Of a stretch of 64,000 nucleotides of DNA, positions 5,819 to 39,324 are shown piece after piece; position 1 is the first letter of the stretch, and every line of letters begins with the position of its first letter. Location of the stretch: the NCBI GenBank assembly GCA_963734535.1, contig CAVTHS010000007.1, positions 64,001 through 128,000 on the forward strand. The letters run 5' to 3'. The DNA comes from an uncultured Chloroflexia bacterium (lineage in GTDB: Bacteria; Chloroflexota; Limnocylindria; Limnocylindrales; CSP1-4). A model generated the notes under the pieces. That model saw nothing but the letters and a program-made list of their open reading frames with translations, did not search any database and had not been told where the DNA came from. A program made the translations under genes and the position numbers.

Positions 5819-6159
5819 TTCTCAACCCTCCGGTAGAGGATGGCGGAGCCCCCGGTGCGCGGACATGCTGCGCCGACTGGCCGGAGTGGGCGCATAGGCG
5901 TTCGCCCAGGAAGCCAGCGGAGGTGGGTCAATGCGCATTCACGGTCCTGGAAGGTCCGGACGAGCCGAAGACGGGTCGAACCCCACGTCGCGGCCCCCGG
6001 CCTTGCTCACCGGTTTCGTCACCGCGTCGGCCCGGTCTTCCGCCTCTTCCGCGACGACTGGAATCCGCGCATCCCGGAGGCGACCGATGAGCACCCAGGA
6101 CAACCGCGCCTCCGCTGCAGGCAGTCAACGTTCCACGAGGAAAGAGGAGGGACCAGGGA

Positions 6160-12784: not shown

Positions 12785-12801
12785 TCGGTGCCGAGCCAAG
12801 C

Positions 12802-12820
12802 GGGGGCCGTCACGGCCCCC
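12802..12820 (+). terminator. GC-rich hairpin after the giant gene (terminator or mRNA stabiliser)
   Basis: gggggccgt-c-acggccccc inverted repeat; no U-tract. Confidence 0.35.
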
Positions 12821-12972
12821 AGGCCGCTCCACCCGAGCCAGCGCAGGCGCCGGGAGCGTCGACGCGGCGCTCCCCGGGCAGGCCTGACCGCAGTGAGACC
12901 AGGCAGCGCGGCGCCAGGCGCGACCGGCCACCAGCCCGGCAGTCGTCGGCAGGCCCGCTTCAGGAGAACACG

Positions 12973-14404: not shown

Positions 14405-14417
14405 TCCATGAAAGGAG

Positions 14418-15779: not shown

Positions 15780-15788
15780 GAGACGACG

Positions 15789-18700: not shown

Positions 18701-18829
18701 CTGACCGCCGGCACGGGCTCCGTGTCCGCCGTTCGCCTGGGCTCTGTGACTTCCGGCGGCAGCAACACCCTCATGTACTTCGACGCCTTCGCCTCCAAGC
18801 GATCGGTGTCGCCGCTCATCGGGCCGTAG
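15789..18829 (+). CDS. Multicopper oxidase-like subunit C (no canonical Cu motifs) fused to Ig-like repeats and a C-terminal beta-sandwich-like domain; frameshifted
   Basis: PGPLLIVNQGDPV, GTYLYEAG...QVAMGLYG, YWLINGKGYP, GGMLT; then AEYF / DAAGNW repeats; ends YFDAFASKRSVSPLIGP*. Confidence 0.75.
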
Positions 18830-18848
18830 TCCCAAGCACCTCGCACGC

Positions 18849-18884
18849 GGGGCCGGCCGGCCACCCGACACGCCGGCCGGCCCC
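18849..18884 (+). terminator. 13-bp GC hairpin after the MCO genes
   Basis: ggggccggccggc-N10-gccggccggcccc. Confidence 0.45.
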
Positions 18885-18941
18885 GCCACCCCGTTCACTC
18901 AACGCAATCGCCTTCCACGGCACCAACCGGAGGAGCTTTCC

Positions 18942-19430
18942 ATGGCCGAGTCGGCCGTCCTTCCAGCACTGCGGGGGCGCTTCGGAAGCGTCCCGGGCGC
19001 GATCGTCCCCTTCGCCGGCGCGCTTGCGCTGCTCGCCGCGGTGATCGCCCTGGGCCTCACCCTGCGCGCTCCCGCCGCACCCGCCGGGACACCGATCCCG
19101 CCGAATCCCGCCGTCGAGACCAAGTGGGGGGTCAGGGTCAGCCAGGTGGCGGTAACCGCGGACGGTGGTCTCGTCGACTTCCGCTTCATCGTCCTCGACC
19201 CGGACAAGGCGTCCGAGATGCTCTCGAACGTCGACAACCTGCCCGTGCTCCGCGTGGACGGCTCGGGCGTCGTCGTCAACTCCACCGCACAGATGGGCGG
19301 CCACCCGACCCTCCGGCCCGGTCAGACCTACTTCCTCCTCTACCGCGACGCGGGTGGCGCGATCAAGAGCGGCACCTCCCTCAGCGTCCTGTTCGGCGAT
19401 CTCGCGATCGACCACGTGATCGCCCGCTGA
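18942..19430 (+). CDS. Membrane-anchored conserved hypothetical protein (paralog of 1-312)
   Basis: GGAGGAG RBS, N-terminal TM helix, GGLVDFRF motif. Confidence 0.8.
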   Translation: MAESAVLPALRGRFGSVPGAIVPFAGALALLAAVIALGLTLRAPAAPAGTPIPPNPAVETKWGVRVSQVAVTADGGLVDFRFIVLDPDKASEMLSNVDNLPVLRVDGSGVVVNSTAQMGGHPTLRPGQTYFLLYRDAGGAIKSGTSLSVLFGDLAIDHVIAR

Positions 19431-19442
19431 CGGTGTGATCCG

Positions 19443-23671: not shown

Positions 23672-23774
23672 CAGCCGGCCGGTTCCGCGCCGCGGGACCT
23701 GCCATCCATCCGGGGTAACGAGGCCGCTGCCCGGCGGCCTGGACTCATCGTTCGTCATCGAGGGGGGAAGGACC

Positions 23775-24209
23775 ATGTCCCATCGAAGGGGGCTCGCGGC
23801 GCTGTGCGCCGCCACCATCGTGCTCGCCGCCTGCGGAGGCGGGACGACGGCGCCCTCGCCGCACACCGCCACCGCCACGGTCGGGGAGTTCAAGATCGCG
23901 CTCGACACCGCCAAGCTCTCGGCCGGCCAGGACACCCTGACCGTCAAGAACGACGGCAAGATCACCCACGAGTTCGTGGTCGTGCGCACGGACCTCGCCC
24001 CCGATGCCCTGCCGACCGGCTCGGACGGCGGGGTCGACGAGGAGGCGACCGACGTGGCGCACGTCGACGAGGTCGAGGACATCGCCGCGGGCTCGAGCGG
24101 CTCGCTGACCGTCTCTCTGCCGGCCGGCAAGTACGTCGTCTTCTGCAACCTGCCCGGCCACTACAAGGGCGGCATGCACGCCGCGATCGAGGTCACCGCG
24201 GGCGCCTGA
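23775..24209 (+). CDS. Cupredoxin (blue copper) lipoprotein, sulfocyanin/auracyanin-like
   Basis: Lipobox LAAC; HEFVV and FCNLPGHYKGGM provide the type-1 Cu ligands His, Cys, His, Met. Confidence 0.88.
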   Translation: MSHRRGLAALCAATIVLAACGGGTTAPSPHTATATVGEFKIALDTAKLSAGQDTLTVKNDGKITHEFVVVRTDLAPDALPTGSDGGVDEEATDVAHVDEVEDIAAGSSGSLTVSLPAGKYVVFCNLPGHYKGGMHAAIEVTAGA

Positions 24210-24440
24210 GGCCCACCCCATCGAAGATCCCCGGGGGACGAGACGCGGCCGATCGCGAGGTCGGCCGCGTCTCCGCGTCCGCGTCCGGGCGTGGGCGGGG
24301 GCGAAGGAGCGGGGCGCTCGCTTCCGCCCGGCACCCCGCCAGACGCTCGATGTCCCGTACGGTACCCTTGCCGGACCGGCCTGCGTCCTGCCGATCACGC
24401 GGGCGCGCCGGCGTTGACAGGCAGGAGGACACGAGGTCCC

Positions 24441-26310
24441 GTGACGATCACGAAGGGCCACGAGGTGCCGGTCCAGGAGCTGGACCGCGTCACCATCCGG
24501 TTCGCCGGCGATTCCGGCGACGGGATGCAGCTGACCGGCACCCAGTTCTCCCGGACGGCGGCCGTGTTCGGCAACGACATCAGCACGCTGCCGGACTACC
24601 CGGCCGAGATCCGGGCCCCGGCCGGGTCGATCCCCGGCGTCTCGGGCTTCCAGATCTCGTTCAGCTCCAGCGAGATCCACACGCCGGGCGACGCCCCGGA
24701 CGTGCTCGTGGCCATGAACCCGGCCGCCCTCCGCGCCAACGTCCGCGACCTCGCGCCCGGCGGCGCGATCATCGTCAACAGCGACGCGTTCACGCCCCCG
24801 AACCTGGCCAAGGCGGGCTACGCGATGAACCCGCTCACCGACGATTCGCTGCGCTCCTACACGGTCTTCGACATCCCGGTCTCGACCCTCAACGCGCGGG
24901 CGCTCGATGGGCTCGACATGACCTCGAAGCAGATGGACCTGACGCAAGAACTTCTTCGCCCTCGGGATCATGTTCTGGCTCTACGGGCGGAGCATGGAGA
25001 CCACCCAGGCCTGGATCGAGGAGAAGTTCGGGGGCCGGCCGATCGTCGCGGAGGCCAATCGGCGGGCGCTCAACGCCGGCTATGCCTTCGGCGAGACCAC
25101 CGAGATCTTCCACACGACCTATCGCGTGGCGCCCGCGCACCTTGCGCCGGGCACCTACCGCAACATCACCGGCAACGAGGCGACCGCGCTCGGCCAGCTG
25201 ACGGCCTCGAAGCTCGCCGACCGCCAGCTCGTCTACGCCTCGTACCCGATCACGCCGGCCTCGGAGATCCTGCACCAGCTCTCCGGGTGGAAGAACTTCG
25301 GCCTCAAGACGTTCCAGGCGGAGGACGAGATCGCGGCGATCGGTGCTGCCCTCGGCGCCAGCTACGGCGGCGCCATGGGGCTCACCGGGACTTCGGGGCC
25401 AGGGATGGCCCTCAAGGCGGAGATGCTCGGTCTCGCCGTGATGGTGGAGCTGCCGCTCGTCGTGATCGACGTCCAGCGCGCCGGCCCGTCGACCGGGATG
25501 CCCACCAAGACGGAGCAGAGCGACCTGCTGCAGGCGCTCTTCGGCCGCAACGGCGACTCGCCGATCCCGGTGGTCGCGCCGGCGACGCCCGCCGAGTGCT
25601 TCGACTACGCCATCGAGGCGTGGCGGATCGCGCTCCGCCACATGACGCCGGTCGTCTATCTCTCCGATGCGTTCCTGGCCACCGGCTCGGAGCCGTGGCG
25701 GATCCCGGAGCTCGACGCGCTGCCCGACCTGCGCGTGCCCAACCGGACGGATCGCGCGGGCTTCTACCCGTACGAGCGGGACCCGGAGACGCTCGCCCGG
25801 CCGTGGGCGGTGCCGGGCACCCCGGGCCTGGAGCACCGGATCGGCGGCCTCGAGAAGCTCGACGTCCTGGGCACCATCAGCTACGACCCGGACAATCACC
25901 ATCGAATGCAGCAGCTGCGCGCGGAGAAGGTCGCCAGGATCGCTCGCGACATCCCGCCGCTGGACGTCTTCGGACCGCTCGAGGGCGAGCTCCTGATCCT
26001 GGGCTGGGGCAGCACCTACGGCGCCATCCGGAGCGCCGTCGAGCGACTCCAGGACACGGGCCGGAAGGTCGCTCATGCGCACCTGCGCCACCTGAACCCG
26101 TTCCCCACCAACACGGGCGACGTGGTCCGCGCGTACGACCGGGTCCTGATCCCCGAGATCAACATGGGCCAGCTCCGGATGCTGATCCGCTCGATGTTCC
26201 TGGTGGACGCGGAGGGCTTCAACCTCGTCCGGGGCAAGCCATTCACGATCAGCGAGATCCTGGCGAAGGCCGAGCAGGTGCTCGGAGACCCGGTGAGGCC
26301 CACGAGATGA
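24441..26310 (+). CDS. korA: 2-oxoacid:ferredoxin oxidoreductase alpha subunit (frameshift near 24945)
   Basis: FAGDSGDGMQLTG, YPITPAS, QAEDEIAA, QRAGPSTGMPTKTEQSD. Confidence 0.92.
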
Positions 26311-27353
26311 CCGACCAGCGCACGCCGTCCGCACCGGACGCGGCTCCCATCAAGCTCTCCCGCAAGGACTTCGCCAGCGACCAGGAGGTCCGCTGGTGCC
26401 CGGGCTGCGGCGACTACTCGATCCTTGCCCAGACCCAGAAGGTGATGCCCGACTTCGGCGTGCCGAAGGAGAACATCGTCTTCATCTCGGGGATCGGCTG
26501 CTCCGGGCGCCTGCCGTACTACATGAACACGTATGGCTTCCACTCGATCCACGGTCGCGCTCCGACGATCGCGACAGGGCTCAAGGAGGCTCGCCCCGAG
26601 CTGATGGTGTGGGTGGTCACCGGGGACGGGGATGCGCTCTCGATCGGCGGCAACCACATCCTCCACTCCATGCGCCGAAACGTCGACATCCGGGTCGTGA
26701 TGTTCAACAACCGCATCTACGGCCTCACGAAGGGCCAGGCGTCGCCGACCTCCGAGTTCGGGCAGAAGACGAAGTCGACCCCGTCCGGCTCGGCCGACTA
26801 CCCGATCCACCCGCTGGTCGTCGCCCTCGCGGCGGAGGCGAGCTTCGTCGCCCGGGCGGTCGATACGCAGACGGAGCATCTCCAGGGAGTCCTGGAGCGG
26901 GCCGGCTTCCATCGTGGGTCCGCCTTCGTCGAGGTCCTCCAGAACTGCAACATCTTCAACGACGGGGCGCACCGCGCATTCACCGAACGGGACGTCCGGG
27001 AGGACCGCCAGCTGGTGCTGGAGCACGGCAAGCCGATGCTCTTCGGCAAGAAGCACGACCTGGGTCTCCGGCTCAACGGCGTGCGCCCGGAGATCGTGCG
27101 GGTCGGCGAGGACGGGATCACCGAGGCGGACATCCTCGTTCACGACGAGACGAGCGAGGACCCGACGATCCACAACATGCTCGCCCGGATCTACTGGCCC
27201 GAGTTTCCCGTGCCGATCGGCGTCATCCGGAACGTGCCTCGTCCAACCCACGACGAGCTGGTGAGTGCGCAGGTCCGGGACGCGATCGCCCGGCAGGGGC
27301 CCGGCGACCTCGCCAAGGTCCTCCGCTCCGGCGAGACCTGGACGGTCCAGTGA
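26307..27353 (+). CDS. korB: 2-oxoacid:ferredoxin oxidoreductase beta subunit
   Basis: WCPGCGD, SGIGCS, TPP motif GDGDALSIGGNH...NNRIYGLTKGQ. Confidence 0.93.
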   Translation: MTDQRTPSAPDAAPIKLSRKDFASDQEVRWCPGCGDYSILAQTQKVMPDFGVPKENIVFISGIGCSGRLPYYMNTYGFHSIHGRAPTIATGLKEARPELMVWVVTGDGDALSIGGNHILHSMRRNVDIRVVMFNNRIYGLTKGQASPTSEFGQKTKSTPSGSADYPIHPLVVALAAEASFVARAVDTQTEHLQGVLERAGFHRGSAFVEVLQNCNIFNDGAHRAFTERDVREDRQLVLEHGKPMLFGKKHDLGLRLNGVRPEIVRVGEDGITEADILVHDETSEDPTIHNMLARIYWPEFPVPIGVIRNVPRPTHDELVSAQVRDAIARQGPGDLAKVLRSGETWTVQ

Positions 27354-27814: not shown

Positions 27815-29019
27815 CGGGGCCCGTCGCGCCGGTCTCGGTCGCGCCCGCCGTCCGCCCGAGCATTCCGGCCGCGCGCTTCGGCGCGCGGCTCGCAAGGGCG
27901 CAGGCCGGCGTGGCCGAACGCGGCCTGCGGGCGATGCTCGTGAGCGTCGGCCCGGACCTCGTCTATCTCGCCGGCTACGAGGCGATGCCGCTGGAACGGC
28001 TGACGATGCTCGTGGTCCCGGCATCCGGCCGCTCGACGCTGCTCGTCCCCCGCCTGGAGACCGCACCCGCCCGGGCATGCCCGGGCGTGGCCGGAGGCCA
28101 TCTCGACCTCGAGACGTGGGAGGAGACCGAGGACCCGGTCGATCGGGTCGCGCATCTCGTCGGCGGGTTCGGTTCGGCCTTCGCTGGCCGCGCCACGCCG
28201 GATCGGGTCGCAGTCTCGGATCGACTCTGGGCGTTCCACCTCCTGCGCCTCCAGGCCGTGCTGCCGGGCGCCGTCTTCGTGTCGGCGTCGCTCGTGCTGC
28301 GCGACCTGCGGATCGTCAAGGACGCCGACGAGATCGCACTGCTGCGCCTCGCGGCGGAGGCCGCCGACCGCGTCGTCTGGGAGATCGCGCACGGGCGCCT
28401 GGTCGGGCGAAGCGAGGCCGATGTCGCGCGGGAGGTCCGCGACCGGCTCCTCGCCGAGGGCCACGATCGGGCGGACTTCGCGATCGTGGGCTCGGGCCCG
28501 AACTCGGCGTCGCCTCACCACGAGGCGTCGGACCGGATCATCGGGGCAGGCGAGCCGATCGTGCTCGACATCGGCGGGCCGTACGGCGGGTACGGGAGCG
28601 ACACGACGCGAACCATCTGGGTCACCGGGGGCGACGCGACGCGCGGGCCGGACGACGAGTTCCTGCGCCTCTACTCGGTGCTGCGGGCCGCGCAGGCCGA
28701 GGCCACCCACGCAGTCCGTCCTGGCGTCGCCTGCGAGCGGATCGACCTCGTCGCCCGGGAGCTGATCTCGGCATCGGGCCACGGCTCCCATTTCTTCCAC
28801 CGGACGGGCCACGGCATCGGCCTCGAGGGTCACGAGGACCCGTACCTCGTCGCGGGCAATGCCGAGGAGCTCCGACCGGGGATGGCCTTCTCGGTAGAGC
28901 CGGGGATCTACCTCGCGGGCCGGTATGGGGCCCGGATCGAGGACATCGTGATCTGCGGCGAGGACGGCCCGATCGTCCTGAACCAGCTGGACCGTGACCT
29001 CCTCGTCGTCACCGGATAG
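27811..29019 (+). CDS. M24 family Xaa-Pro peptidase
   Basis: SPHH, LDIGG...SDTTRT, HRTGHGIG, FSVEPGIY, RIED. Confidence 0.92.
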   Translation: MTGPVAPVSVAPAVRPSIPAARFGARLARAQAGVAERGLRAMLVSVGPDLVYLAGYEAMPLERLTMLVVPASGRSTLLVPRLETAPARACPGVAGGHLDLETWEETEDPVDRVAHLVGGFGSAFAGRATPDRVAVSDRLWAFHLLRLQAVLPGAVFVSASLVLRDLRIVKDADEIALLRLAAEAADRVVWEIAHGRLVGRSEADVAREVRDRLLAEGHDRADFAIVGSGPNSASPHHEASDRIIGAGEPIVLDIGGPYGGYGSDTTRTIWVTGGDATRGPDDEFLRLYSVLRAAQAEATHAVRPGVACERIDLVARELISASGHGSHFFHRTGHGIGLEGHEDPYLVAGNAEELRPGMAFSVEPGIYLAGRYGARIEDIVICGEDGPIVLNQLDRDLLVVTG

Positions 29020-29109
29020 CGCGACGGGCGGCCGGTCGCCGTCGCGTGGTCGCGGGACGCGGGCGGGGTCCCGTCCGCGTCGCATCGGGACCGGCGCTAT
29101 GATCCGGCC

Positions 29110-29499
29110 ATGATCGAGCCCACGCTCGGCGCGCCCGAGACGACCGCCGAACCCGTCGTGGTGGATGCCTTGGACGCGGCTGTGGCTGCGGCCGTGGATG
29201 TGGCTGCGGATGCGGCAATTGCCGTCTGCACCCAGGCCCAGCTCCGGCGCTTCATCAAGAGCCGTTCGTACGTGCCCATCCACGAGCTCCGGCGCCGGTT
29301 TGCGCTCCTCGGGGAGGACGACGACGTCACCGGTTTCACCGTCTCGGGTCGACGCGTCTTCGTGGGCCTCCCGGCCCGCGAGGCTCGCATGCTCGGCGAG
29401 CTTGTCTTCCAGGGCGACGTCGGGTACGAGCTCCTCCTCGATCCGACCTCTCCGCTCATCGTCGGCGTCTTCCCCGTCCGGCCGGTCCAGCGCTCCTGA
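29110..29499 (+). CDS. Hypothetical protein, possibly winged-helix-like
   Basis: Coding-like ORF QLRRFIKSRSYVPIHELRRRF... Confidence 0.6.
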   Translation: MIEPTLGAPETTAEPVVVDALDAAVAAAVDVAADAAIAVCTQAQLRRFIKSRSYVPIHELRRRFALLGEDDDVTGFTVSGRRVFVGLPAREARMLGELVFQGDVGYELLLDPTSPLIVGVFPVRPVQRS

Positions 29500-29638
29500 C
29501 GCACGGCAGCCTCCTGGGCTGTCATCGAGACGACACCGCGGCGGTCACAACGACCCTTTACCCGGTTCCCGAGCGGGTGCATCCTGCATGCCACAGGCAG
29601 CGGGCGACGACGCACACCCGGGCCAAGAGGGGACTCGA

Positions 29639-30162
29639 ATGAGCACCAAACGCAAGGCAATCGAGGGCGACGGCTTCATCGCCCGTCGAGCCACCGAGGC
29701 GACGACGTCGAGGGCCACGGCGTCTCGGCGCGCAAGGCTGTCGAGAGCGATGGCGCCATCCTCCGCAAGGCCACCGACGACGACGTCGAGGGCCACGGCG
29801 TCTCGGCGCGCAAGGCTGTCGAGAGCGATGGCGCCATCCTCCGCAAGGCCACCGACGACGACGTCGAGGGCCACGGCGTCTCGGCGCGCAAGGCTGTCGA
29901 GAGCGATGGCGCCATCCTCCGCAAGGCCACCGACGACGACGTCGAGGGCCACGGCGTCTCGGCGCGCAAGGCTGTCGAGAGCGATGGCGCCATCCTCCGC
30001 AAGGCCACCGACGACGACGATGTCGAGGGCCACAACATCGGGGTCATGAACCCGATCCTCGCGCGTGAGCTCTCCCGGGCCCGCGAGCGCGATGTCCAGC
30101 GGGAAGCCTCCCGCAACACGCTCATCGGCGAGGCCAAGCGGGCACTCGGGCGCAAGCGCTGA
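29639..30162 (+). CDS. DDVEGH-repeat peptide (~174 aa; one base missing near 29699)
   Basis: AAGAGGGG RBS, ATG at 29639; restored frame MSTKRKAIEGDGFIARRATEG(DDVEGHGVSARKAVESDGAILRKATD)x4 DDDVEGHNIGVMNPILARELSRARERDVQREASRNTLIGEAKRALGRKR*. Confidence 0.8.
29701..30033 (+). repeat. 78-bp perfect tandem repeat, four copies plus a partial fifth
   Basis: Units start at 29701, 29779, 29857, 29935 and (partial) 30013. Confidence 0.95.
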
Positions 30163-30188
30163 TCTGCTTCCAGGGTTCGTCGCCCCTG

Positions 30189-30222
30189 GACGGGCGGGGT
30201 CGCAGGACCCCGCCCGTCTTCC
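30189..30222 (+). terminator. Hairpin after the DDVEGH peptide gene
   Basis: gacgggcggggtc-gcag-gaccccgcccgtc, a 13-bp perfect stem followed by pyrimidines. Confidence 0.65.
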
Positions 30223-30383
30223 TGTCTGCCGCGGCCGCGACCTCCGACGGCCGACCCACCTGCCGCACCCGGCGCACGATCCCGGCACCAGCCAGACCGC
30301 ACGGGCCACATTGCGCTCGTGGTGGCGCGCCACTAGCATTCGGCGCGTCGACCGGGGAGCCGGGCGCAGGGAAGGGGCGGAGC

Positions 30384-31088
30384 GTGACAGGGACCGCACG
30401 GACGACCGCGGGTGATGCGCTCCGAAGCTGTGCGCTGTTCTCGCGCGTCGACGATGCCACGCTCGCGGTCTGCATCGACTCCCTGCGGACCCGCCGCTAC
30501 CGCAGAAACGAGACGATCTTCCACCAGGGCGACCCCGGCGACTCCCTGTACATCATCGAGTCGGGAGCCGTGAAGATCGTCCTGCCGTCGCCGGAGGGTG
30601 AGGACGAGGCGATCATCGCCACCCTGGGCCCGGGCGACTTCTTCGGCGAGCTCGCCCTGCTCGACGGCGCCGAGCGCTCGGCGACCGCGATCGCCCACGA
30701 GGCGACGACGTCCCTCGTGCTCCGCCGCGACGCGTTCGGCCACCTGATCGACACGGTGCCGGCGCTGCGCCACGAGCTCCTGGCGGGCCTCGTCGCCGAG
30801 CTGCGCCGCCTGACGCACCACGTGGAGGAGCTCCACTTCCTGGACCTGCCGGGCCGGCTGGCGCGCCGCATCGTGCGGCTTGCCCGCGATGTCGAGCCCG
30901 ACCCCAGCGGGGCAGTGACGCTCGACTGGAGCTTCTCCCAGTCGGAGCTGGCCGCGATGATCGGCGGAACGAGGCAGACGGTGAACCGGCTCCTCGGGGA
31001 CTTCACGGCGGAGGGCCTGATACGGATCGATCGCGACAGGCTGGTCGTGCCCGACCTGGAGCGCCTCGAGCGGGCGGCTTCGCGCTGA
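30384..31088 (+). CDS. Crp/Fnr family transcriptional regulator
   Basis: IFHQGDPGDSLYII, FFGELALLDGAERSATA cNMP-binding motif, SQSELAAMIGGTRQTVNR HTH. Confidence 0.93.
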   Translation: MTGTARTTAGDALRSCALFSRVDDATLAVCIDSLRTRRYRRNETIFHQGDPGDSLYIIESGAVKIVLPSPEGEDEAIIATLGPGDFFGELALLDGAERSATAIAHEATTSLVLRRDAFGHLIDTVPALRHELLAGLVAELRRLTHHVEELHFLDLPGRLARRIVRLARDVEPDPSGAVTLDWSFSQSELAAMIGGTRQTVNRLLGDFTAEGLIRIDRDRLVVPDLERLERAASR

Positions 31089-31107
31089 GCCGCGCCGGCG
31101 GGACTCT

Positions 31108-31935
31108 ATGACCGATCCGGGGGAAGGCGCGCGCCGTCGCGGTCCAGGCTTCGATCGTGACGCGCGTGCCGCGCTCGCCGCAATCGGCCGCCGCGCCGAG
31201 ATTGCGCGGCGTCTCGAGCTCGGGAGCGCCGAGGCGGTTCTCCGCTCGATCGTCGAGGCGGCCGCGGCCCTGTTCGAGGCCGAGGCTGCATCCATCGCCC
31301 TGTACGAGCCGGCGCGCAACGTCCTCGTCTTCCGTGTCGCGGCCGGCGAGCACGGCCAGGGCGTGATCGGGCTCGAGATCCCGCCGGACCGCGGCCTCGT
31401 CGGCTACGTCTTCTCGAGCGGGCAGGCGCTCGCCATCGCCGACGTGCGGGCGGACCCGCGCTTCGGTCGGAGCTTCGCCGAGCAGACCCAGTACGTGCCG
31501 CGCAGCATCGTGGCCGTCCCCCTTCTGGACGAGCGCGGCACGCTCGGCGTCCTCGAGGTGCTCGACAAGCGAAGCGAGACCAGCTTCTCTCTCCGCGACA
31601 TCGAGCTGGCCGGCGTCTTTGCGCGGCAAGCCACCGTCGCGATCCGCGCCAGCCGGGTGGAGCGTGACGCCGCGACGCTCCTTCGCTCGGTGATCGGCGC
31701 GCTGGCTGGCGGGGATGCGCCCGGTGGCGGCGTCGATGCGCTCGTGGCCGCCGCGCTCGTCGACGTCGGCGACCCGGATGACCCCCTGTGGCCCCTCGTC
31801 GAGCAGATCGCCGCCCTTCGCCGGGTCGGGCCCGAGCAGCGCGAGCTGCTGGGCGCCCTGCTCGACGTCCTCGTACGCCAGGCCGAGCGCGGCCGGAGTC
31901 GGCGCGCCGGTCGCCTCCGCGCGCCGGGCGGATGA
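31108..31935 (+). CDS. Stand-alone GAF domain protein
   Basis: AEAASIALY, GLVGYV, DVRADPRF, RSIVAVPL, LGVLEVLDK, FSLRDIELAGVFARQA. Confidence 0.88.
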   Translation: MTDPGEGARRRGPGFDRDARAALAAIGRRAEIARRLELGSAEAVLRSIVEAAAALFEAEAASIALYEPARNVLVFRVAAGEHGQGVIGLEIPPDRGLVGYVFSSGQALAIADVRADPRFGRSFAEQTQYVPRSIVAVPLLDERGTLGVLEVLDKRSETSFSLRDIELAGVFARQATVAIRASRVERDAATLLRSVIGALAGGDAPGGGVDALVAAALVDVGDPDDPLWPLVEQIAALRRVGPEQRELLGALLDVLVRQAERGRSRRAGRLRAPGG

Positions 31936-32762
31936 CCGATCCGCTCCTCCCGGCGTGGAGCGAGCCGTTCAGCGGCGCGCGGCGGGACGCGCTGCGCCAC
32001 CTCCCACCGTTCGGTGCGCTCGATCGCGCCTGGGCGATCGGCGGGAGCGACGGCAGCGGCGTCACCGTCGCGATCATCGACTCGGGGGTGGAGCGAGACC
32101 ATCCGGCTGTCGGCGGGAAGCTGGCCCGCAGCGTCCGGGTCGAGCTGGCCGCGGACCCGGAGGACGACCCCGTGATCCTCGACGACGAGGAAGGCACCGA
32201 CGTGGTGGGGCACGGGACCGCCTGCGCCGGGATCATCCACGCGATCGCGCCGGGCGCGGACCTCGTCTCGGTCCGGGTCCTCGGACCGGACAACCGCGGC
32301 AAGGGGATCGTGTTCGCGGCGGGCCTCGACTGGGCGATCGGCCAGGGCGCCGGCGTGATGAACCTGTCGCTCTCGTCGAAGAGCGATGCGCTGTTCGCGC
32401 TCTTTCACGATCTCGCCGACCGGGCCTACTTCGCGAACGCGCTCCTCGTGTGCGCGGCGAACAACGTGCCCGGGAACAGCTACCCATCCCTCTTCGCGTC
32501 GGTCATCTCCGTCGCGGCGCATGACCTCGCGGACCCGGCCGCGTGGTTCTACAACCCGAGCCCGCCGGTGGAGTTCGGGGCCCACGGGCTGGACGTCAAC
32601 GTCGCCTGGCGCGGCGGGAGCCGCATGATCGCGACGGGCAACAGCTTTGCCGCCCCCCACATCGCCGGGTACGCGGCGCTGATCCGGTCCAAGCACCCGG
32701 AGGCGACCCCGTTCGAGGTGAAGGCGATCCTGGCCGCGACCGCTTCGTCGCCGGCCGGCTGA
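31932..32762 (+). CDS. Minimal cytoplasmic S8 subtilase (no signal peptide)
   Basis: IIDSG, HGTACAG, AANN, GNSFAAPH; ATGA overlap with the GAF gene. Confidence 0.9.
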   Translation: MTDPLLPAWSEPFSGARRDALRHLPPFGALDRAWAIGGSDGSGVTVAIIDSGVERDHPAVGGKLARSVRVELAADPEDDPVILDDEEGTDVVGHGTACAGIIHAIAPGADLVSVRVLGPDNRGKGIVFAAGLDWAIGQGAGVMNLSLSSKSDALFALFHDLADRAYFANALLVCAANNVPGNSYPSLFASVISVAAHDLADPAAWFYNPSPPVEFGAHGLDVNVAWRGGSRMIATGNSFAAPHIAGYAALIRSKHPEATPFEVKAILAATASSPAG

Positions 32763-32767
32763 AGGGG

Positions 32768-32806
32768 GAAGACGGCCGTCCCCGGAGGAGCGGGGCGGCC
32801 GTCTTC
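32768..32806. terminator. Hairpin between convergent genes
   Basis: gaagacggccgtccc...ggggcggccgtcttc inverted repeat. Confidence 0.55.
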
Positions 32807-32871
32807 AGGGTCCGGGCGAGCCGGCGGGTCCAATCGCCGGCGGATTCCCCCGTGTGATTTCGACGGAGCGG

Positions 32872-33465
32872 TCAGGCGGGCGACGCCTCGGTTGCGAGCC
32901 GGCGCGCCCGCGCCGCGAGGGCCGGGTTCCCGTTGCGCTCGAACGCCTCCGCCGCCTGCGTCGCGATCGACGCGGCCTCGCGACCACGTCCGGCCAGCTG
33001 CAGCAGTCGCGCGACGTCCACCAGGGCGTCGGCCGCGAGCACGACCAGGTCAGATTCCTGGGCGAACCGAACCGCCTCGCGGGCGACGCTCCGGGCCCCG
33101 CTCGTGTCGCCGGCGCGCTCCAGGGCTCTGGCTCGCCGGGCGCGCCAGAGCACCTGGACGAACGTGTCGTCCTCCGCGGAGGCGTCGATCGACGCCGCGG
33201 ACGTGGCCCCCGGTCTCGCGGCGGCATCGAGCGCCTGCCCGAGGAAGGGCGACATGAAGCTGTGCCCCTCCACGTCGCCCTCGGTGCCAGCGGCCACGCG
33301 ATCGCGACCGGGGAGTCGCCGTTCGGCCGAGAAGCCGTCGCCGGCTCCGGGAATCTCGGGCATGCCGTGGCCGCTCACGTCGTCGTCGGCGAAGCCGTCG
33401 CCCGGACCCATCCGGCGGCGTGCGTTCACCAGGCCATCCGGCCCGGTCGCATCCCGGTCTCCCAT
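32872..33465 (-). CDS. DVxGH-motif protein fused to a TPR-like helical C-terminal domain
   Basis: AGGGGT RBS before ATG at 33465; DDDVSGH and TEGDVEGH motifs; C-terminal QVLWRARRAR...AREAVRFAQESDLVVLAADALVDVARLL...FERNGNPALAARAR. Confidence 0.75.
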   Translation of the reverse strand: MGDRDATGPDGLVNARRRMGPGDGFADDDVSGHGMPEIPGAGDGFSAERRLPGRDRVAAGTEGDVEGHSFMSPFLGQALDAAARPGATSAASIDASAEDDTFVQVLWRARRARALERAGDTSGARSVAREAVRFAQESDLVVLAADALVDVARLLQLAGRGREAASIATQAAEAFERNGNPALAARARRLATEASPA

Positions 33466-33931
33466 GATCCACCCCTGTCGGTTCGGTCCCCCAGCCGCGA
33501 GTGCGGCCCCCGGCGTCATTGCCCCGGGATCCCTGCATGGTGGCGGGTCGACGCCCGCGCGACAATCCCCGACCCGACAGCCGTCGTGTCGCGAGGGCGA
33601 CATCCGGCCGATGAATCCCGCCCAGCGGCCCGCGGCCTGCCGTCTGCCGGGATTCCCCGTGAAATCCTCGTCAATGGCGACCCTGGGAGCAGTATCCGAC
33701 GTGTGGTCTCGGCAGGACGGCCCAGATCGACGCGGGAGGCCGGACCGGCGCCACGGTCATCGGTATCGCTGCGTGCACGAAGCACACGCGAGGAAATCCA
33801 CGGCCGCAGCCGGCCTGCCCGCCTCCACGTGCCGCCCGGGGTTCGACCTTCCGGGTCAGTGATTGCAGGCGCCGCGTTAGCGAGGAAAGTGGGCCGGCGG
33901 CGCAACGCGCGGCGCCCGCCACGGCGTCCCC

Positions 33932-35678
33932 TCAGCCTGCCGCGCCCGGCGCCCCGCGGCGGAGGTCCAGCAGCCGCGGCGCCAGGCCGGGTCCCGCGTT
34001 GACCAGCTCAAGGAAGCTGGCCCCGTCGAGCGCGAGCAGCGTGCCGTCCGTCGTCGCCGTCACGGTCGCGGTCCTGGCCGTCGAGCGGAGCAGGCCGATC
34101 TCGCCGAACACCTCTCCGCTGGCCATCGAGCGGAGCCGGGCGGGCGGTGCGTCCGCGGGATCGCCCGGCTCGCGGCGTGTCACCCTGAACGTGCCGGCCT
34201 CGATGACGTAGAACCGATCCGCGGGATCGCCCTGCCGGATCACGACGTCGCCCGCGCGGGCCGACACCGGGACCAGCCGCGTCGCCACGGCCTCCAGCGT
34301 CGGCACCGGCACGCCGGAGAAGATCGTCAGCCGCGCCAGGCTCGCGAAGCGGGTCGCGGCGATGCTCTCCGGGGCGCGGCGGGCCGCGGGCGCAGCAAGT
34401 ACCGCCCCGATCAGCCCCGCGACGGCGACCGCAGCGCCGGTCGCCGCGAGGACCGTCCCGATCCCGAGGGCGTTCGCAAGCACCGGCAACGCGAACGAAC
34501 CGGCGGCGAACGCGAGCGTGGATGCAGTTGCCAGGACGCCCAGCGTCCGTCCGCGGATCTCGTCGGGGATGGCGCGCTGGAGGATCGTGGTGCTGGTGAC
34601 CTCCACGAGCAGCGCCCCGGCCGAGGCCACGGCGATCGTGCCGACCGCCAGCGGCATCGAGCCCGAGATCCCGAGGGCGGCGAGGCCCGCGGCGAGCACG
34701 AGCGATCCGCCCGCGAGGACGCCGACAAGGCTCGGCCGCAGGACGAAGACCCCGGCGAGGAGCGCGCCCACCAGCCCGCCGACACCGATCCCGGCGTTCA
34801 GGAAGCCGGTCCCCGCGTCGCCCGCTCCCAGGGACGACACGGCGATGACGACGGTCAGCACGCCAAGGCCACCGCCCGCGACGCTCCCGACGAGGTCGAT
34901 CAGGGCGAGGCCGAGCACGGGGACCACCACCGTACGACGGCGCTCGCGGCCTGTCAGGGTCGTCACCGGCGTCGCGGCCGTGGCCTGCGCGGGGGCCGTC
35001 GCGGGGGTCGCGGCGACATCGCCGTGCCCGACCGGGGTCCCGCCCGCAGCGGAGACGTTCCGGCTCTCGCCGGTCGCGGAGCGCCGCGGCGACGGAAGCC
35101 GCCACAGGACCGCGGCGATGACGGCGAACGTGACCGCGTTGAGGATGAACGCCAGGACCAGCCCGCCGGCGGCGATCAGGAGCCCCCCGATCGCCGGCCC
35201 GATCACGAAGGCAAGGTTGTCGAGCGTGGACCAGGCGCTGTTCGCGGGGCCGAGCTGCTCCTCGTTCGCGACGAGGGAGGGAAGGTATGCGCCGATCGCG
35301 GGCCCGAAGAACGTCGAGAAGCAGGTCGCGACGACGGCGAGGCCGACGATCGTGACGATCGGCGCGTTCGTGGCGACAAGGGCCGCCATGACCAGCATGA
35401 GCAGCCCGCGCGCGACATCGGTGACCAGGAGGATGAGCCGGCGATCGTACCGGTCCGCGATGATGCCCGCCGGGATCGACAGCGACCACGTAGGGCAGGA
35501 CGCGCGCCGCGCCCACGATCCCGAGGACCAGCGGGTCGTTCGAGACCTCGTAGACGAGGATCAGGATCGCCACGAGGTAGAGCCAGTCGCCGATCGACGA
35601 GACGAACTCCCCGGCGAGGAGCCGCGCCAGCGGGCGGTTCCCGAGCAGGAGGCGATAGGCCCGCAGGACCGCGATCAT
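33932..35678 (-). CDS. MFS transporter with C-terminal cyclic-nucleotide-binding domain (frameshift near 35487)
   Basis: GEFVSSIGDWLY, ADRYDRR MFS motif, many TM helices; VIRQGDPADRFYVI...FGEIGLLRSTARTATV. Confidence 0.88.
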
Positions 35679-35772
35679 CCGCGGAGGGTACGGCCCGGGC
35701 TGGCGATTCGCACGCCCGAAACGCGGCTGCCGAAACCGCGCGGCCCGAGGTCACGCTCGGGCCGCCTCGAAC

Positions 35773-36368
35773 TCAGCGCCCGCGGACGACCACGCCCTCC
35801 ACCGCGAGCAGCGCCCGTTTGAGCGCGAGGAGCTCGGTGCGGCTGCCGAACCAGCTGCCACCGTAGCCGCCGAGCGTCCCGTCGCCCGCGATCACGCGGT
35901 GGCAGGGGATCAGGAGGCCGACCGGGTTGCGGCCGACCGCCCCGCCGACGGCGCGGGCCGCGCCCGGTGAGCCGATCCGTCGGGCGACCTCGCCGTACGA
36001 GGCGGTGGCGCCGTGCGGAATCGTCGGACGCCCTCCAGCACGCGCCGATCCCAGTCGCTGATGCCCTCGAGGACGATCGGGACGGTGAAGGCCGTCCCCG
36101 AGCCGGCGAGATGCTCAGCCAGCTCGACCTCGAGCCGCCCGACCAGCGCCCGGGTGGCAGGGTCCGCGTCGGCGATACGCAACGTCGGCCGGCCCGTCCG
36201 CCGGGCGACCGAGGCGGCGAACGCCTCGAACGTGGTCCGGAGCTCCACGCCGTGGATTCCGTCAGGGCCTGCGGCCACGTGCACGGGCCCCAGCTTCGAC
36301 TCGAGGACGGCGATCGCGAGGGGCTCCGCGGCGCCGACGCCCCGAATCGCGCCCCTCCCTGGATTCAC
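35773..36368 (-). CDS. ogt: Methylated-DNA--protein-cysteine methyltransferase (frameshift near 36020)
   Basis: [27 protein letters not shown] active-site motif. Confidence 0.88.
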
Positions 36369-36484
36369 GGGCGGAGTGTACGGTGCTCGCGGGCCGGGCA
36401 TGTGCCCACGTCACCGTGCCACGGCGTTGGCGCGCCGGTGGTCTCCGGCCTCGGACAATGCCGTCGCCAGATCCCGAATCCCGG

Positions 36485-36505
36485 TGGTATACTCCCCGGG
36501 AGTAT
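36485..36505 (+). promoter_or_regulatory. CsoR/RicR-type operator overlapping the extended -10 of copA
   Basis: Palindrome ATACTCCC-C-GGGAGTAT at 36489-36505; TGgTATACT at 36485-36493; ATG at 36504. Confidence 0.7.
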
Positions 36506-39324
36506 GACGACCAGCGTCCCAGTCTCCGCTCCCGACCTACCCGCCGACGTCGCGCCGCCGCTCGAGGTCAGCTTCCCGGTGGTCGGGATGACCTGCGCGT
36601 CGTGCAGCAACCGGATCGAGCGTTTCCTGCGAAAGACGGACGGCGTGGTCGAGGCGAGCGTGAACCTCGCCACCGAGGTCGCCACGATCCGCTACCTGCC
36701 GCAGCAGGTGGGCCGTGCCGACCTGGTCGGCGCGATCGAGAAGGCAGGCTACGAGGTCCGGCCGGGTGCGCTCCAGGCCGCCGACGCCCGCGCCGCCGTG
36801 GCGAGCGGCACCTCGGCGACCGGCGCCACGCGCGGCGCGGTGGCCGCTGCCGGCGACGCGGTCGCCACCGAGATGGACGAGACCGAGCGCGCGCGCGCCG
36901 CCGAGACGCGCCAGCTCGGGATCCAGTCGGCGGTCTCGATCGCCGTTGCCGTCGGGATCATGGTCGTGATGTTCTGGCCGGCGATCCCGCTCGCGATGAC
37001 CGACGTCAACCGGCTGGTCCTGTGGCCGGCCACGTTCATCCAGCTCTGGGCCGGGCGGCGCTTCTACGAGGCAGCCTGGCGTGCGTTCCGCCACGGCTTC
37101 GGGACGAACATGAGCACGCTCGTGGCCGTCGGCACCAGCGCCGCCTGGGCCTACAGCGTCTTCGTGACCATGTACCCCGAGATCATCATGCGCGCCGGCC
37201 TGTCGGGCGAGACGTACTTCGACTCGTCGGCGATCATCATCGGCCTGATCCTCCTGGGGAAGTGGCTCGAGGCGCGGGCAAAGGGCCGCACGACCGGCGC
37301 GATCAAGCGCCTCATCGGGCTCCAGGCGAAGACCGCCCGGCTGCTGACCGATGCCGGCGAGGTGGACGTCCCGATCGACCAGGTCCTGCCCGGCGACCTC
37401 CTCCGGGTCCGGCCCGGCGAGAAGGTCCCGACCGACGGCGTGCTCATCGAGGGAAGCAGCGCGCTCGACGAGGCGATGCTGACCGGCGAGGCGATGCCCG
37501 TCACGAAGCGGCCCGGCGACGAGGTGATCGGCGCCACCCTCAACACGACCGGCAGCTTCGTGATGCGCGCGACGCGGGTCGGGAGCGAGACGGCGCTCGC
37601 CCAGATCGTGGAGCTCGTGCGCCGGGCGCAGGGCTCGAAAGCGCCGATCCAGCGCCTGGCCGACCAGATCAGCGCGATCTTCGTGCCCGCCGTTCTCGCG
37701 GTCGGTGCGCTCACGTTCGCGCTCTGGTGGCTGCTGGGCCCGGAGCCGAAGCTGACCCTGGCGCTCGCCGCGTTCATCACCGTCGTGGTCATCGCCTGCC
37801 CGTGCGCCATGGGGCTCGCGACGCCGACGGCGATCATGGTGGGCACCGGGCGCGGGGCCGAGGCCGGGATCCTGGTCCGCGGCGGTGAGGCCCTCGAGAC
37901 CGCCCAGCGGGTGACCACGGTCCTGTTCGACAAGACGGGCACCCTCACGCGCGGCACGCCCGCGGTGGCGGATCTCGTCCCGGTTCCCGGCGGCGACCCG
38001 GAGGCGCTCCTTCGGCTGGCAGCGGCCGTCGAAGCCGGCTCCGAGCATCCGCTCGCGAGCGCCATCCTCCTCGCGGCGCGCGAGCGCGGCCTCGCCTTCC
38101 CGGGCGCGGAGCAGTTCGCCGCGATCGTGGGCGGCGCGCGAGGCGAGCGTCGACGGTGTGCCGGTGCTCGTCGGGAGCGCGCGGCTGCTCGGCGAACGTG
38201 GCATCGACATCGGCCCGCTCGGCGTCATCGGCGACGCGCAGGCCGCTCAGGGCCGGACGCCGGTCTTCGTTGCCCGCGACGGCGTCGCCATCGGGCTCAT
38301 CACGATCGCGGACCCGGTCAAGCCGGAGGCCGCGGAGGCCGTCCGTGCGCTCGCCGCCCAGGGCGTCACGGCGTGGCTCGTCACCGGCGATCATCGGGCG
38401 ACTGCCGAGGCCGTCGCCCTGGCCGCCGGGATCCCGGCCGAGCGGATCCGCGCAGGCGTCCTGCCCGGGGACAAGGCCGCGCTCGTGGCAGAGCTGCAGG
38501 CGGCGGGCGCGGTCGTCGCGATGGTCGGCGACGGGATCAACGACGCTCCCGCGCTCGCGGCGGCGGATCTCGGCATCGCGATCGGGACCGGTGCCGACGT
38601 CGCCATCGAGGCCTCCGATGTGACGCTCGTCGGCGGCGACCCTCGCGGGGTGGTGTCCGCGCTCGCGCTCTCGCGCCGGACGATGGCGGTCATTCGCCAG
38701 AACCTCTTCTGGGCGTTCGCCTACAACGTGCTCCTCATCCCGGTTGCGATGGGCATCCTCTACCCGGCCTTCGGCATCACCCTGAATCCCGCGATGGCGG
38801 CCGGGGCGATGGCCCTCTCCTCGGTGAGCGTCATCTCGAACTCGCTGCGTCTTCGGGCCTACGATCCGCGCCCCGCGGCGGTGCTGGCTTCGAGCCGCCA
38901 CGCAGGCTGGACGCGGGTCCGAGATGCCGCCTACCTGGGCCTCGTGGCGTTCGCGGCGGTCGGAATTGCCGCCGGTGTCATCGGCTACGGGCGCTGGCTC
39001 GACGCGAACGCACGGCCGGTGGACCTGGTCGCGACCGGCCTCCGCGGCGACGCGCCGGTCGTCGCGATCGCTGCCGGCCAGGACGTCCTCGTCACGTTCC
39101 GCAACGACGACGTGGCCGTCCAGGTCTGCACGCTCCCCGGGGTGCCCCGCGTCGAGCTCAACCCGCGGCCCGGCGCGGCCCAGGCCGCCCGCTTCGCCAT
39201 CGCGACACCCGGCACCTATGAGCTGATGTGCGCCCCCGCGGACGGCGGGATGATGTCGGCGACGGACCCGGCGCCCGCTGCCGGCGCGGGACGGGTTGGC
39301 GCCCGATTCGTGGTCGGCCCCTGA
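36504..39324 (+). CDS. copA: Cu(I)-translocating P1B-type ATPase with C-terminal TM and cupredoxin-like extension (frameshift near 38140)
   Basis: GMTCASC metal-binding domain, TGE, ACPC, DKTGT, SEHP, GDGIND, YN, MALSS. Confidence 0.92.

Follow-up and report, generated by a model that had tools for sequence, protein, structure and literature searches.

A conserved GAF-subtilase gene module with tandem-repeat EGH peptides and a proposed link to cyclic nucleotides in soil bacteria

Background

In yeast, the S8 kexin Kex2 processes the tandem-repeat precursor of alpha-factor, and the repeat precursors of the ustiloxin type in fungi are similar. Here we describe a bacterial locus that invites this comparison, found in a stretch of 64,000 nucleotides (hereafter the window) from an uncultured Chloroflexia bacterium (GenBank assembly GCA_963734535.1, contig CAVTHS010000007.1, positions 64,001 to 128,000 of the forward strand). 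Its six adjacent genes encode a peptide with repeats ending in DDVEGH (peptide A), a Crp/Fnr-family regulator, a GAF protein, an S8 subtilase, a second protein with DVxGH motifs (peptide B) and a major facilitator superfamily (MFS) permease whose tail is a domain for cyclic nucleotide monophosphates (cNMP). We conclude that these six genes very probably form one functional module. The GAF protein and the subtilase most likely make up its core, with the peptides as dedicated partners and with Crp, a candidate operator and the MFS-cNMP pump as frequent accessories.

The likeness to Kex2 and alpha-factor consists in a subtilase with a precursor of tandem units, a short fixed boundary signal and a variable number of repeats. 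Kex2 is secretory, membrane-bound and cuts at dibasic sites, whereas the subtilase of the module is cytoplasmic, the signal is acidic with VEGH and cleavage is a prediction. The GAF partner and the proposed control by cyclic nucleotides are also unlike Kex2. The cyanobactin precursor PatE and its proteases PatA and PatG resemble the module in being bacterial, with cytoplasmic S8 enzymes, multi-core precursors, conserved recognition sequences and hypervariable cores. Unlike cyanobactin loci, the module locus has no heterocyclase, oxidase or prenyltransferase; unlike cyanobactin precursors, its peptides have no N-terminal leader, and peptide A has a conserved C-terminal tail. As a PatA/PatG protein (TIGR03895) the subtilase of the window scores 26.2 bits against a cut-off of 421, and there are no tailoring genes among its neighbours.

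In the Rap-Phr and RNPP systems of Firmicutes, subtilases release short peptides from precursors and tetratricopeptide repeat (TPR) proteins are the receptors; Phr precursors are exported by Sec, cut outside the cell and re-imported by Opp. The module, in contrast, has no signal peptide, Opp or Rap-like receptor, and its TPR-like domain is fused to peptide B in one subclade. Second-messenger-activated defence proteases such as CalpL, which is activated by cA4, and SAVED-CHAT offer another comparison, in that the module protease, too, would be turned on in the cytoplasm by a nucleotide messenger and would cleave a small protein dedicated to it. The two kinds of system differ in protease fold, sensor domain and messenger, and the module lacks a CRISPR or CBASS context. 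QhpE, which removes the leader of QhpC, is likewise a minimal cytoplasmic S8 enzyme with a peptide substrate of its own. Among NCBIfam models it ranks second for our subtilase, which as QhpE (NF049966) reaches 100.1 bits against a cut-off of 165 and has no qhp genes nearby.

The intracellular subtilisins (ISP) of Bacillus share with the module subtilase the absence of a signal peptide and of an I9 prodomain and an L-[IL]-P sequence about 40 residues before the catalytic Asp (PMC6220982). The same paper gives the N-terminal pro-peptide motif of ISP as [LVI]-[IFLV]-P-[YFH], with LIPY/F at residues 6-9 and the catalytic residue at Asp49. The subtilase of the window has LLPAW at residues 5-9 and Asp50, so that the first three positions of the motif as given there fit, while the fourth is Ala instead of Tyr, Phe or His. 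No ISP is named among the S8 matches in the PDB, either in the best 60 of 137 by sequence or in Foldseek ranks 1-50; the matches listed are almost all extracellular subtilisins, with BPN', Savinase, Carlsberg and thermitase at the top. To our knowledge ISP do not pair with GAF proteins or repeat peptides.

Neither the module nor its peptides have a Pfam or NCBIfam model. A literature search that excluded supplements found, among the papers listed, no description of a VEGH-type motif or of this combination of domains. The original prediction had not matched this to any named system, which agrees with these searches: the system is undescribed by the libraries and literature searched.

Results and discussion

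Linkage of the module genes across phyla

To follow the peptides, an alignment of them was searched against one genome per species (185,579 species) and the contents of the resulting 31 loci were read by tblastn with the window proteins. In 29 of the 31 loci the peptide has a GAF gene and an S8 gene next to it, and Crp is present in 28 of these 29 as well as in L027. Of all 31 loci, 21 have an MFS-cNMP permease of at least 50 % identity and 12 have peptide B. The two exceptions are L027, whose contig ends just past the peptides, and L031, a Streptomyces match at E 1e-3 that is probably due to chance.

The reciprocal scan, anchored on the subtilase, kept 80 loci (the contigs of L033 and L046 are those that had given L014 and L004 in the peptide scan), which we divided into 45 with an S8 of at least 44 % identity and 35 control loci with a more distant S8. 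A GAF gene within 1.5 kb accompanies 43 of the 45 close subtilases and 1 of the 35 distant ones. Full Crp genes are found at 32 and 2 loci, the MFS-cNMP permease at 24 and 0, at least one [DE][VTASI]EGH motif at 29 and 1, and an open reading frame (ORF) with two or more motifs at 18 and 0, respectively.

The carriers are labelled as Limnocylindrales-type Chloroflexota, Actinomycetota, Dormibacterota, one Methylomirabilota bin and two Acidobacteriota bins, the last with GAF and S8 only. Actinomycetota carriers include Nocardioides, Phycicoccus flavus, Geodermatophilus, Gaiella, Solirubrobacterales, Acidimicrobiales, Mycobacteriales and Pseudonocardiaceae. Gene order is reshuffled among Chloroflexota, Actinomycetota and Dormibacterota. 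It reads MFS-Crp-peptide-GAF-S8 in L028 and, on one strand, Crp-peptide-MFS/cNMP-GAF-S8-cNMP protein-peptide in L049, a Nocardioides metagenome-assembled genome (MAG); S8 precedes GAF in L054, and in L030 the order MFS-GAF-S8 converges on the peptide. In nine loci from other lineages that were scanned with Pfam, the flanks are unrelated housekeeping genes. The original prediction had named the loss of linkage in other genomes as a result that would speak against it. That loss is not what we find, given that ORFs with DVEGH stay linked to S8, GAF and Crp genes across phyla with their order shuffled.

In the window itself, all six of the predicted neighbouring genes are present. The domain assignments for Crp, GAF, S8 and MFS-cNMP are borne out by Pfam and NCBIfam, while the TPR label of peptide B stays below threshold in Pfam.

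The EGH peptides

Peptide A is encoded on the plus strand at 29639..30162 (ATG at 29639, stop codon at 30160-30162). It has an N-terminal MSTKRKAIEGDGF, four to five units ending in DDVEGH and, after the last unit, a basic tail of 42 residues, NIGVMNPILARELSRARERDVQREASRNTLIGEAKRALGRKR. The units derive from a 78-bp tandem repeat at 29690..30033 on the plus strand (4.3 copies, 98 % identity, score 643), one copy of which corresponds to one unit of 26 residues, GVSARKAVESDGAILRKATDDDVEGH. The net charge is -11 in the repeat region and +6 in the tail. The third-position G+C content indicates that the frame of DDVEGH is the coding frame. Codons 1-20, MSTKRKAIEGDGFIARRATE, are out of frame in the assembly, where one base is missing near 29699. 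The orthologues in L001, L002, L006, L009 and L010 are uninterrupted and read ...ATEDDVEGH, and a contig from sequencing run X1, in which 80 % of the sampled words are found, regains the frame through an additional A behind 29699. Because of this frame-restoring base we regard the shift as an assembly error or a strain variant.

A word-seeded search gave 206 proteins of the family at E <=0.01 (85-273 residues by search design), and an exhaustive profile search of 1.84 billion representatives gave 131 at E <=1e-3, all of 38-178 residues. The common layout is a Lys-rich N-terminus, at least one unit ending in [D/E][D/E]VEGH and usually a basic tail. Stored proteins contain 1-6 repeats and loci L012, L024 and L025 up to 11-12, while the smallest forms of the peptide A family consist of a single motif and the tail (for example P0128, 66 residues). 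Of the 236 peptides stored for the family, 200 have a tail of 30 residues or longer, and in these the net charge has a median of +5 in the tail and -6 in the preceding repeats. The spacers range from 13 to about 40 residues and are unrelated across lineages around a constant DVEGH, examples being NIRTKLE, GGVRRATE, MRKAPGATPDE and units of 26-40 residues. Variants of the motif in other lineages are DTEGH, DDTEGH, DETEGH and DD[SA]EGH. Peptides A and B produce only sub-threshold chance matches in Pfam and none in NCBIfam, and a search of the ESM Atlas with the peptides returned only unnamed Chloroflexota clusters with scores of 0.84 or less.

Peptide B lies on the minus strand at 32872..33465, convergent on crp-GAF-S8, and carries DDDVSGH and GDVEGH, as expected from the prediction of a second motif protein in this position. 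The longest ORF extends to 33603. The real start is probably M47 at 33465, giving 197 residues, because a Shine-Dalgarno sequence precedes this codon and 12 close relatives are 192-199 residues long. The protein belongs to a second family of about 95 residues, M.DRDE.RPDGL..ARRRMGPGDGYADDDVSGHGMPEIPGAGDGF...EDDVEGH.., convergent on S8. A TPR-like helical domain of about 130 residues is attached in one subclade and is full-length only in the window, L001 and L010; elsewhere the proteins have about 95 residues and lack it. This C-terminal domain scores 17.5 bits with Pfam TPR_14 (cut-off 23.5), and its matches include proteins with a TPR_12 or TPR_MalT annotation (E 8e-12 and 1.6e-8). A tail is missing from peptide B and from most actinobacterial peptides, hence the motif is the element common to all the peptides.

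Six-frame translation of the 3.2-Mb genome contains 36 occurrences of D[VIT][EDS][GA]H. DVEGH itself occurs 10 times, six of them at the module locus, where a lone DVSGH is also found. The motif that peptides A and B have in common is not a product of chance.

The GAF-subtilase pair

The GAF gene (31108..31935, plus strand) encodes a GAF domain at residues 41-179 (1.5e-20) and a helical C-terminal extension with a conserved PLWxLVEQIAxLRR..PEQxEL. The AlphaFold2 (AF2) model gives the core a pLDDT above 90 and the extension one below 55. The subtilase gene (31932..32762, plus strand) overlaps the stop codon of the GAF gene (ATGA), an overlap that bears out the predicted translational coupling. 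Its product of 276 residues matches Peptidase_S8 (PF00082) at 9.3e-32. It was also predicted to lack a signal peptide, and direct reading of the first 40 residues indeed reveals no hydrophobic leader; there is no prodomain, the Pfam catalytic domain beginning at residue 41. The N-terminal motif LPAWS..F is conserved, with P7 and W9 at 90 % or more.

All 43 orthologues compared keep the catalytic triad D50/H94/S238 and the oxyanion residue N178 unchanged. By the family criterion the protein ranks among the catalytically competent S8 peptidases, and its activity is predicted. The AF2 model (pLDDT 93.2) aligns with subtilisin BPN' in Foldseek at a TM of about 0.7 and E 4e-19, the predicted fold being that of an ordinary subtilisin. 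As a mycosin (TIGR03921) the protein scores 117.5 bits against a cut-off of 278.75. Co-folding of the subtilase with the GAF protein and a two-repeat peptide A gave ipSAE values of 0.00 and 0.00 and included no controls, so that it counts neither way. The window contains two larger S8 proteases (188-2134 and 21365-23668, frames of 649 and 768 residues, the second with TIG) of an architecture unrelated to that of the module subtilase.

A search for longer relatives of the subtilase gave 161 proteins at E <=1e-20; the architectures that follow are from the 120 listed, and eleven proteins were scanned with Pfam. About 20 of the matches listed are GAF-S8 fusions. P0345 and P0351, of about 1310 residues, are single chains with an adenylate cyclase of class III, a STAND ATPase (AAA_16), TPR repeats and, at the C-terminus, an S8 domain of the same clade as the module subtilase, and P0257 is an S8-cNMP-HTH_Crp fusion. 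About 70 of the matches listed (P0258-P0338, for example P0292) are proteins of about 600-650 residues in which S8 is fused to a C-terminal Ser/Thr kinase, with S8 domains 47-55 % identical to that of the window and, where a source is named, from Acidimicrobiales or Actinomycetota. Transport is represented by P0343, an ABC exporter-S8 fusion, and by the MFS_3 fusions P0261, P0337 and P0358.

The P0343 gene (L112:3-1342) is followed by a small ORF of leader type that contains Cys (MSREALASAYTIFLTDERFREEV...AACCPWGHG...) and looks like a leader-type precursor of a ribosomally synthesized and post-translationally modified peptide (RiPP) with a Cys-containing core. This setting resembles a peptidase-containing exporter with S8 replacing the usual C39 domain. 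A metagenome scan for the ABC-S8 fusion found only a 1.5-kb fragment, in which there is no EGH peptide.

A candidate operator upstream of both peptide genes

Two palindromes of the form TGTCR-N6-YGACA are present in the window. The first, TGTCATCGAGACGACA at 29520..29535, is centred about 112 bp upstream of the ATG of peptide A, and the second, TGTCGCGAGGGCGACA at 33587..33602, about 130 bp upstream of the start codon of peptide B. The 64 kb contain no other perfect match; the expected number is 0.29, and in 100 shuffles a count of two was never reached. Strong conservation in six loci extends over the 140 bp that precede peptide A, the palindrome included.

The position is retained beyond the window. 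Across 77 module loci (953 kb, counting in the window and two duplicated contigs) there are 66 perfect sites, of which 51 precede the first motif of an EGH ORF by 40-400 nt (median 193 nt, interquartile range 173-220). The 34 control loci searched for the palindrome (403 kb) contain one site. Actinomycetota and Dormibacterota loci also have palindrome sites. The peptide-less loci L057 and L059 have paired sites upstream of the GAF gene, and L061, whose peptide genes are elsewhere in the locus, has a single one there. The 5-6-5 geometry is that of Crp/Fnr sites. The protein that binds TGTCR-N6-YGACA would be the module's own Crp. The E. coli-type TGTGA-N6-TCACA has three matches at up to two mismatches, against 9.6 expected, and none at the locus.

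A further copy of the palindrome, TGTCGGGCCGGCGACA or a close variant, is found at L013:5729, L014:6531, L016:6687, L019:6615, L032:2375 and L033:2368, downstream of an M24 peptidase gene, with the peptide A site following about 1-2 kb further on. It may mark another member of the same regulon.

A GC-rich hairpin with a perfect 12-bp stem is located 28 nt past the stop codon of peptide A (30190..30217, plus strand; minimum free energy -55.2 kcal/mol for 106 nt, z -2.87). This hairpin could act as a terminator or attenuator before crp and may separate a short abundant peptide transcript from crp-GAF-S8. A scan of 29300-35900 for consensus promoters and terminators detected nothing; the hairpin was passed over because it has no T-run. 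An Rfam scan of 28500-36500 gave two matches, both at chance level. RNA contigs of run X19 cover the start of peptide A and the stretch from the tail into crp. As they are 88-95 % alike, they come from a relative, and they are a weak hint at expression, the contigs being without strand or level and RNA libraries being able to hold DNA.

The cyclic-nucleotide link

Crp, the GAF protein and the tail of the MFS permease each point to cyclic nucleotides. The regulator gene (30384..31088, plus strand) encodes a cNMP-binding domain (PF00027, 2.9e-27, 94.9 bits) followed by a Crp-type helix-turn-helix (HTH_Crp_2, PF13545, 2e-17, 63.3 bits), the succession that defines the Crp/Fnr family. Its identity is 66-99 % in Limnocylindrales-type loci and 48 % in L023. 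As an equivalog of E. coli CRP it scores 94 bits against a cut-off of 266. The permease gene (33932..35678, minus strand) has a one-base frameshift near 35475 and encodes an MFS_3/MFS_1 transporter with a C-terminal cNMP-binding domain (85.5 bits with PF07690, 68 with PF05977 and 66.9 with PF00027), which places it with the EntS-like MFS_3 permeases that carry such a domain. As an equivalog of EntS it has 69 bits against a cut-off of 324.

The best solved relative of the GAF domain is the GAF of an HD-GYP protein (4mcw, 1.5e-19), followed by the GAF-B domain of PDE2A (1e-11), CyaB2 (2e-11) and PDE10A (1.9e-9), with a cGMP-specific phosphodiesterase and PDE5/6 also among the relatives. By sequence the domain is thus related to cNMP-binding GAF domains, and the binding itself is a prediction. 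GAF domains as a class bind many other ligands besides cAMP and cGMP.

Six cyclase domains of class III are encoded in the host genome, several within open frames of 950-1400 residues; all six are on contigs other than that of the window. The suggestion that STAND cyclases accompany the module therefore does not hold for the window, while elsewhere it finds support: a STAND adenylate cyclase (Guanylate_cyc, AAA_16, TPR_12) adjoins Crp in L052, and the S8 clade includes the cyclase fusions described above. Taken together, the candidate Crp-type operators, the relatives of the GAF domain, the fusions of the S8 clade and the cyclase at L052 strengthen the cyclic-nucleotide theme of the original prediction, in which GAF, Crp and the MFS tail would each bind nucleotide. 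Actinobacterial modules also contain stand-alone cNMP-binding-domain proteins of about 150 residues (L049:6758-7261, L061:7926-8372), a fourth type of cyclic-nucleotide sensor.

A proposed mechanism and the case against it

The module and its link to cyclic nucleotides are real, and from them we infer the following mechanism. Class III cyclases, often of the STAND type, would make a cyclic nucleotide that loads Crp. Crp would then bind the palindromes about 110-130 bp upstream of the two peptide genes and set the transcription of both, while the GAF subunit would gate the subtilase. Subtilases read their substrates in a P4-P1 register, and the four fixed residues of the motif match this register; V-E-G-H would thus occupy P4-P1 (subsites S4-S1) and the subtilase would cut after His. 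Such cutting would chop the acidic repeat array into units and free the basic C-terminal helix of peptide A. The products would leave through the MFS_3 permease with its cNMP-binding tail. Cleavage at VEGH, gating by cyclic nucleotides and export are the predicted steps of this scheme. The facts that can be offered for processing and export are the ABC exporter and MFS_3 fusions of the S8 clade, the Cys-containing ORF after ABC-S8 and the TldD/PmbA genes in L083.

The best explanation we can offer is a cNMP-linked module with the GAF protein and the cytoplasmic subtilase as its core and the EGH tandem-repeat peptides as dedicated partners, an explanation to which we give just under an even chance. 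That the peptides are substrates of the subtilase is a tentative proposal of the same standing, and export of the fragments is somewhat unlikely. It is conceivable, if improbable as a whole, that the module is a cNMP-gated peptide factory of soil Terrabacteria (Chloroflexota, Actinomycetota, Dormibacterota) and a prokaryotic counterpart of Kex2 and alpha-factor. In such a factory a tandem precursor under Crp control would be cut in the cytoplasm at the invariant VEGH by the GAF-regulated subtilase; the lineage-specific spacer peptides would leave via the cNMP-gated MFS as signals (pherotypes) or as Asp/Glu/His metallophores, and the freed basic helix would act inside the cell.

Several observations weigh against the cNMP-linked module with the peptides as partners of the GAF-S8 pair. 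The palindrome is not enriched genome-wide (9 sites in 3.2 Mb, where window shuffles predict about 14), and with this count not above chance the case for an operator rests on position and conservation. The distribution of the module is patchy, as the peptide A profile matches 12 of the 201 genomes sampled from the class, including five of the seven from the same genus, and the MFS-cNMP permease is absent from about half of the loci. Some of the GAF-S8 fusions could be artificial, produced by indel errors of long-read assembly at the ATGA overlap. To these are added the conserved tail and the one-motif forms of the peptides, the loci without a motif and the kinase fusions, which bear on a rival explanation and are weighed with it. 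Two parts of the original prediction come out weaker. The idea that products are sensed by TPR receptors has no general pattern behind it, the TPR-like domain being a C-terminal add-on of peptide B in one subclade. The comparison with cyanobactins drawn in the original prediction survives as an analogy, the subtilase being far below the cut-off of the PatA/PatG model.

Alternatively, the peptides could be regulators or effectors, which we consider unlikely. The EGH motifs would then be docking or pseudo-substrate sites that hold or inhibit GAF-S8, or the acidic repeats would mask a basic helix that acts in the intact protein on DNA, RNA, ribosomes or membrane, and the true substrates of the protease would be other cellular proteins. 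No part of peptide A is better conserved than the tail, and together with the forms of one motif plus tail this suggests a role for the intact protein and not for fragments alone. A number of repeats from 1 to about 12 and unconserved spacers fit a valency element. In 16 of the 45 loci with an S8 orthologue, some of them on short contigs, there is no motif within about 6 kb; thus GAF and S8 can occur as a pair with no peptide next to them and may act on other substrates. The S8-kinase fusions, which have no known peptide partner, show that the S8 clade serves other inputs as well. There is also a precedent in Bacillus, where intracellular subtilisins are kept inactive by a short peptide across the active site (PMC6220982). 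What this explanation handles less well is that peptide B and most actinobacterial peptides have no tail and only the motif is universal, and that an inhibitor should keep a fixed stoichiometry and gene order, whereas order and strand vary.

The EGH peptides might also be stress or metal proteins, either acidic, His-bearing disordered metal buffers or hydrophilin-like protectants, that belong to one Crp regulon with GAF-S8 and the MFS permease without being substrates of the enzyme. Every unit has Asp, Glu and His in a hydrophilic sequence of low complexity, a common operator means co-regulation and does not require physical interaction, the window is rich in copper genes (CopC/CopD, multicopper oxidase fragments, cupredoxin, CopA) and the carriers come from soil, peat and permafrost. 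The copper genes are absent, however, from the module in the nine Pfam-scanned loci of other lineages, and neither the absolute invariance of V-E-G-H, Val and Gly included, nor the near-obligate pairing of GAF with S8 (43 of 45) is explained, so we think a stress or metal role quite improbable. The least credible account is that adjacency is inherited synteny only and the common motif a curiosity of repeat expansion without joint function. Unrelated flanks such as the M24 peptidase gene and a 129-residue ORF are indeed syntenic within Limnocylindrales-type loci. Across phyla, though, the components are kept while flanks and order change, control loci are nearly free of module components, the operator is conserved and natural domain fusions exist, which brings the synteny-only account close to refutation and leaves it barely any probability.

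Cyclic-nucleotide signalling is abundant in Actinomycetota and Chloroflexota, with many class III and STAND cyclases, many cNMP-binding proteins and few known outputs. The module is a concrete and widespread output, in which a regulator and its candidate operator, a protease and its sensor partner, dedicated repeat peptides and a proposed gated transporter come together. If the peptides are processed, they would represent a new class of ribosomal peptide product or intracellular proteolytic switches in slow-growing soil bacteria, and would provide a natural pair of protease and recognition tag. The module is testable in cultured carriers, namely Phycicoccus flavus CMS6Z-2 and Geodermatophilus sp. 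CPCC 205761.

In the latter strain (L083:2232-5463) genes for TldD/PmbA-type metalloproteases come after the EGH peptide gene on its own strand, divergent from GAF-S8. TldD/PmbA process peptide precursors such as microcin B17. No RiPP modifying enzyme was found in the window locus, and the nine loci of other lineages contain only a radical SAM near L048 and TldD/PmbA in L083; for lack of a modifying enzyme we do not regard the module as a RiPP cluster.

Genome context and neighbouring genes

The host genome is 3.2 Mb in 14 contigs with about 72 % G+C. Among public genomes, the closest relatives of the window are MAGs with the label Chloroflexota or Candidatus Limnocylindrales, and the soil, peat and permafrost habitats of the carriers are inferred from the sequencing runs that contain part of the stretch. 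Two of the six module genes, those of peptide A and the MFS permease, have one-base frameshifts in the assembly. Mid-gene frame changes also occur in the gene for the alpha subunit of 2-oxoacid:ferredoxin oxidoreductase (korA, 24291-27353) and in that for a CopA-type ATPase (about 38150). As the shift in peptide A is mended in a public contig and the nearby korA, copA and MFS genes are shifted too, we read these frameshifts as assembly indels and not as pseudogenes.

The module has a copper-handling neighbourhood at 5900-24200 and 35967-39324. Upstream, a 12-kb run of plus-strand ORFs in shifting frames with a strong A>T skew of 0.15-0.20 includes multicopper-oxidase fragments (12977-13966 and 14422-15789). 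It is followed downstream by CopC/CopD (19431-21368), the S8 protease with TIG (21365-23668) and a sulfocyanin-like cupredoxin (23637-24206); the CopA ATPase is downstream of the module. The 129-residue ORF, which has no family, occupies 29110-29499 in the window and lies between the M24 peptidase gene and the palindrome upstream of peptide A in most Limnocylindrales-type loci. It probably belongs with the M24 gene and not with the module, because in L043 the ORF is elsewhere and adjoins M24.

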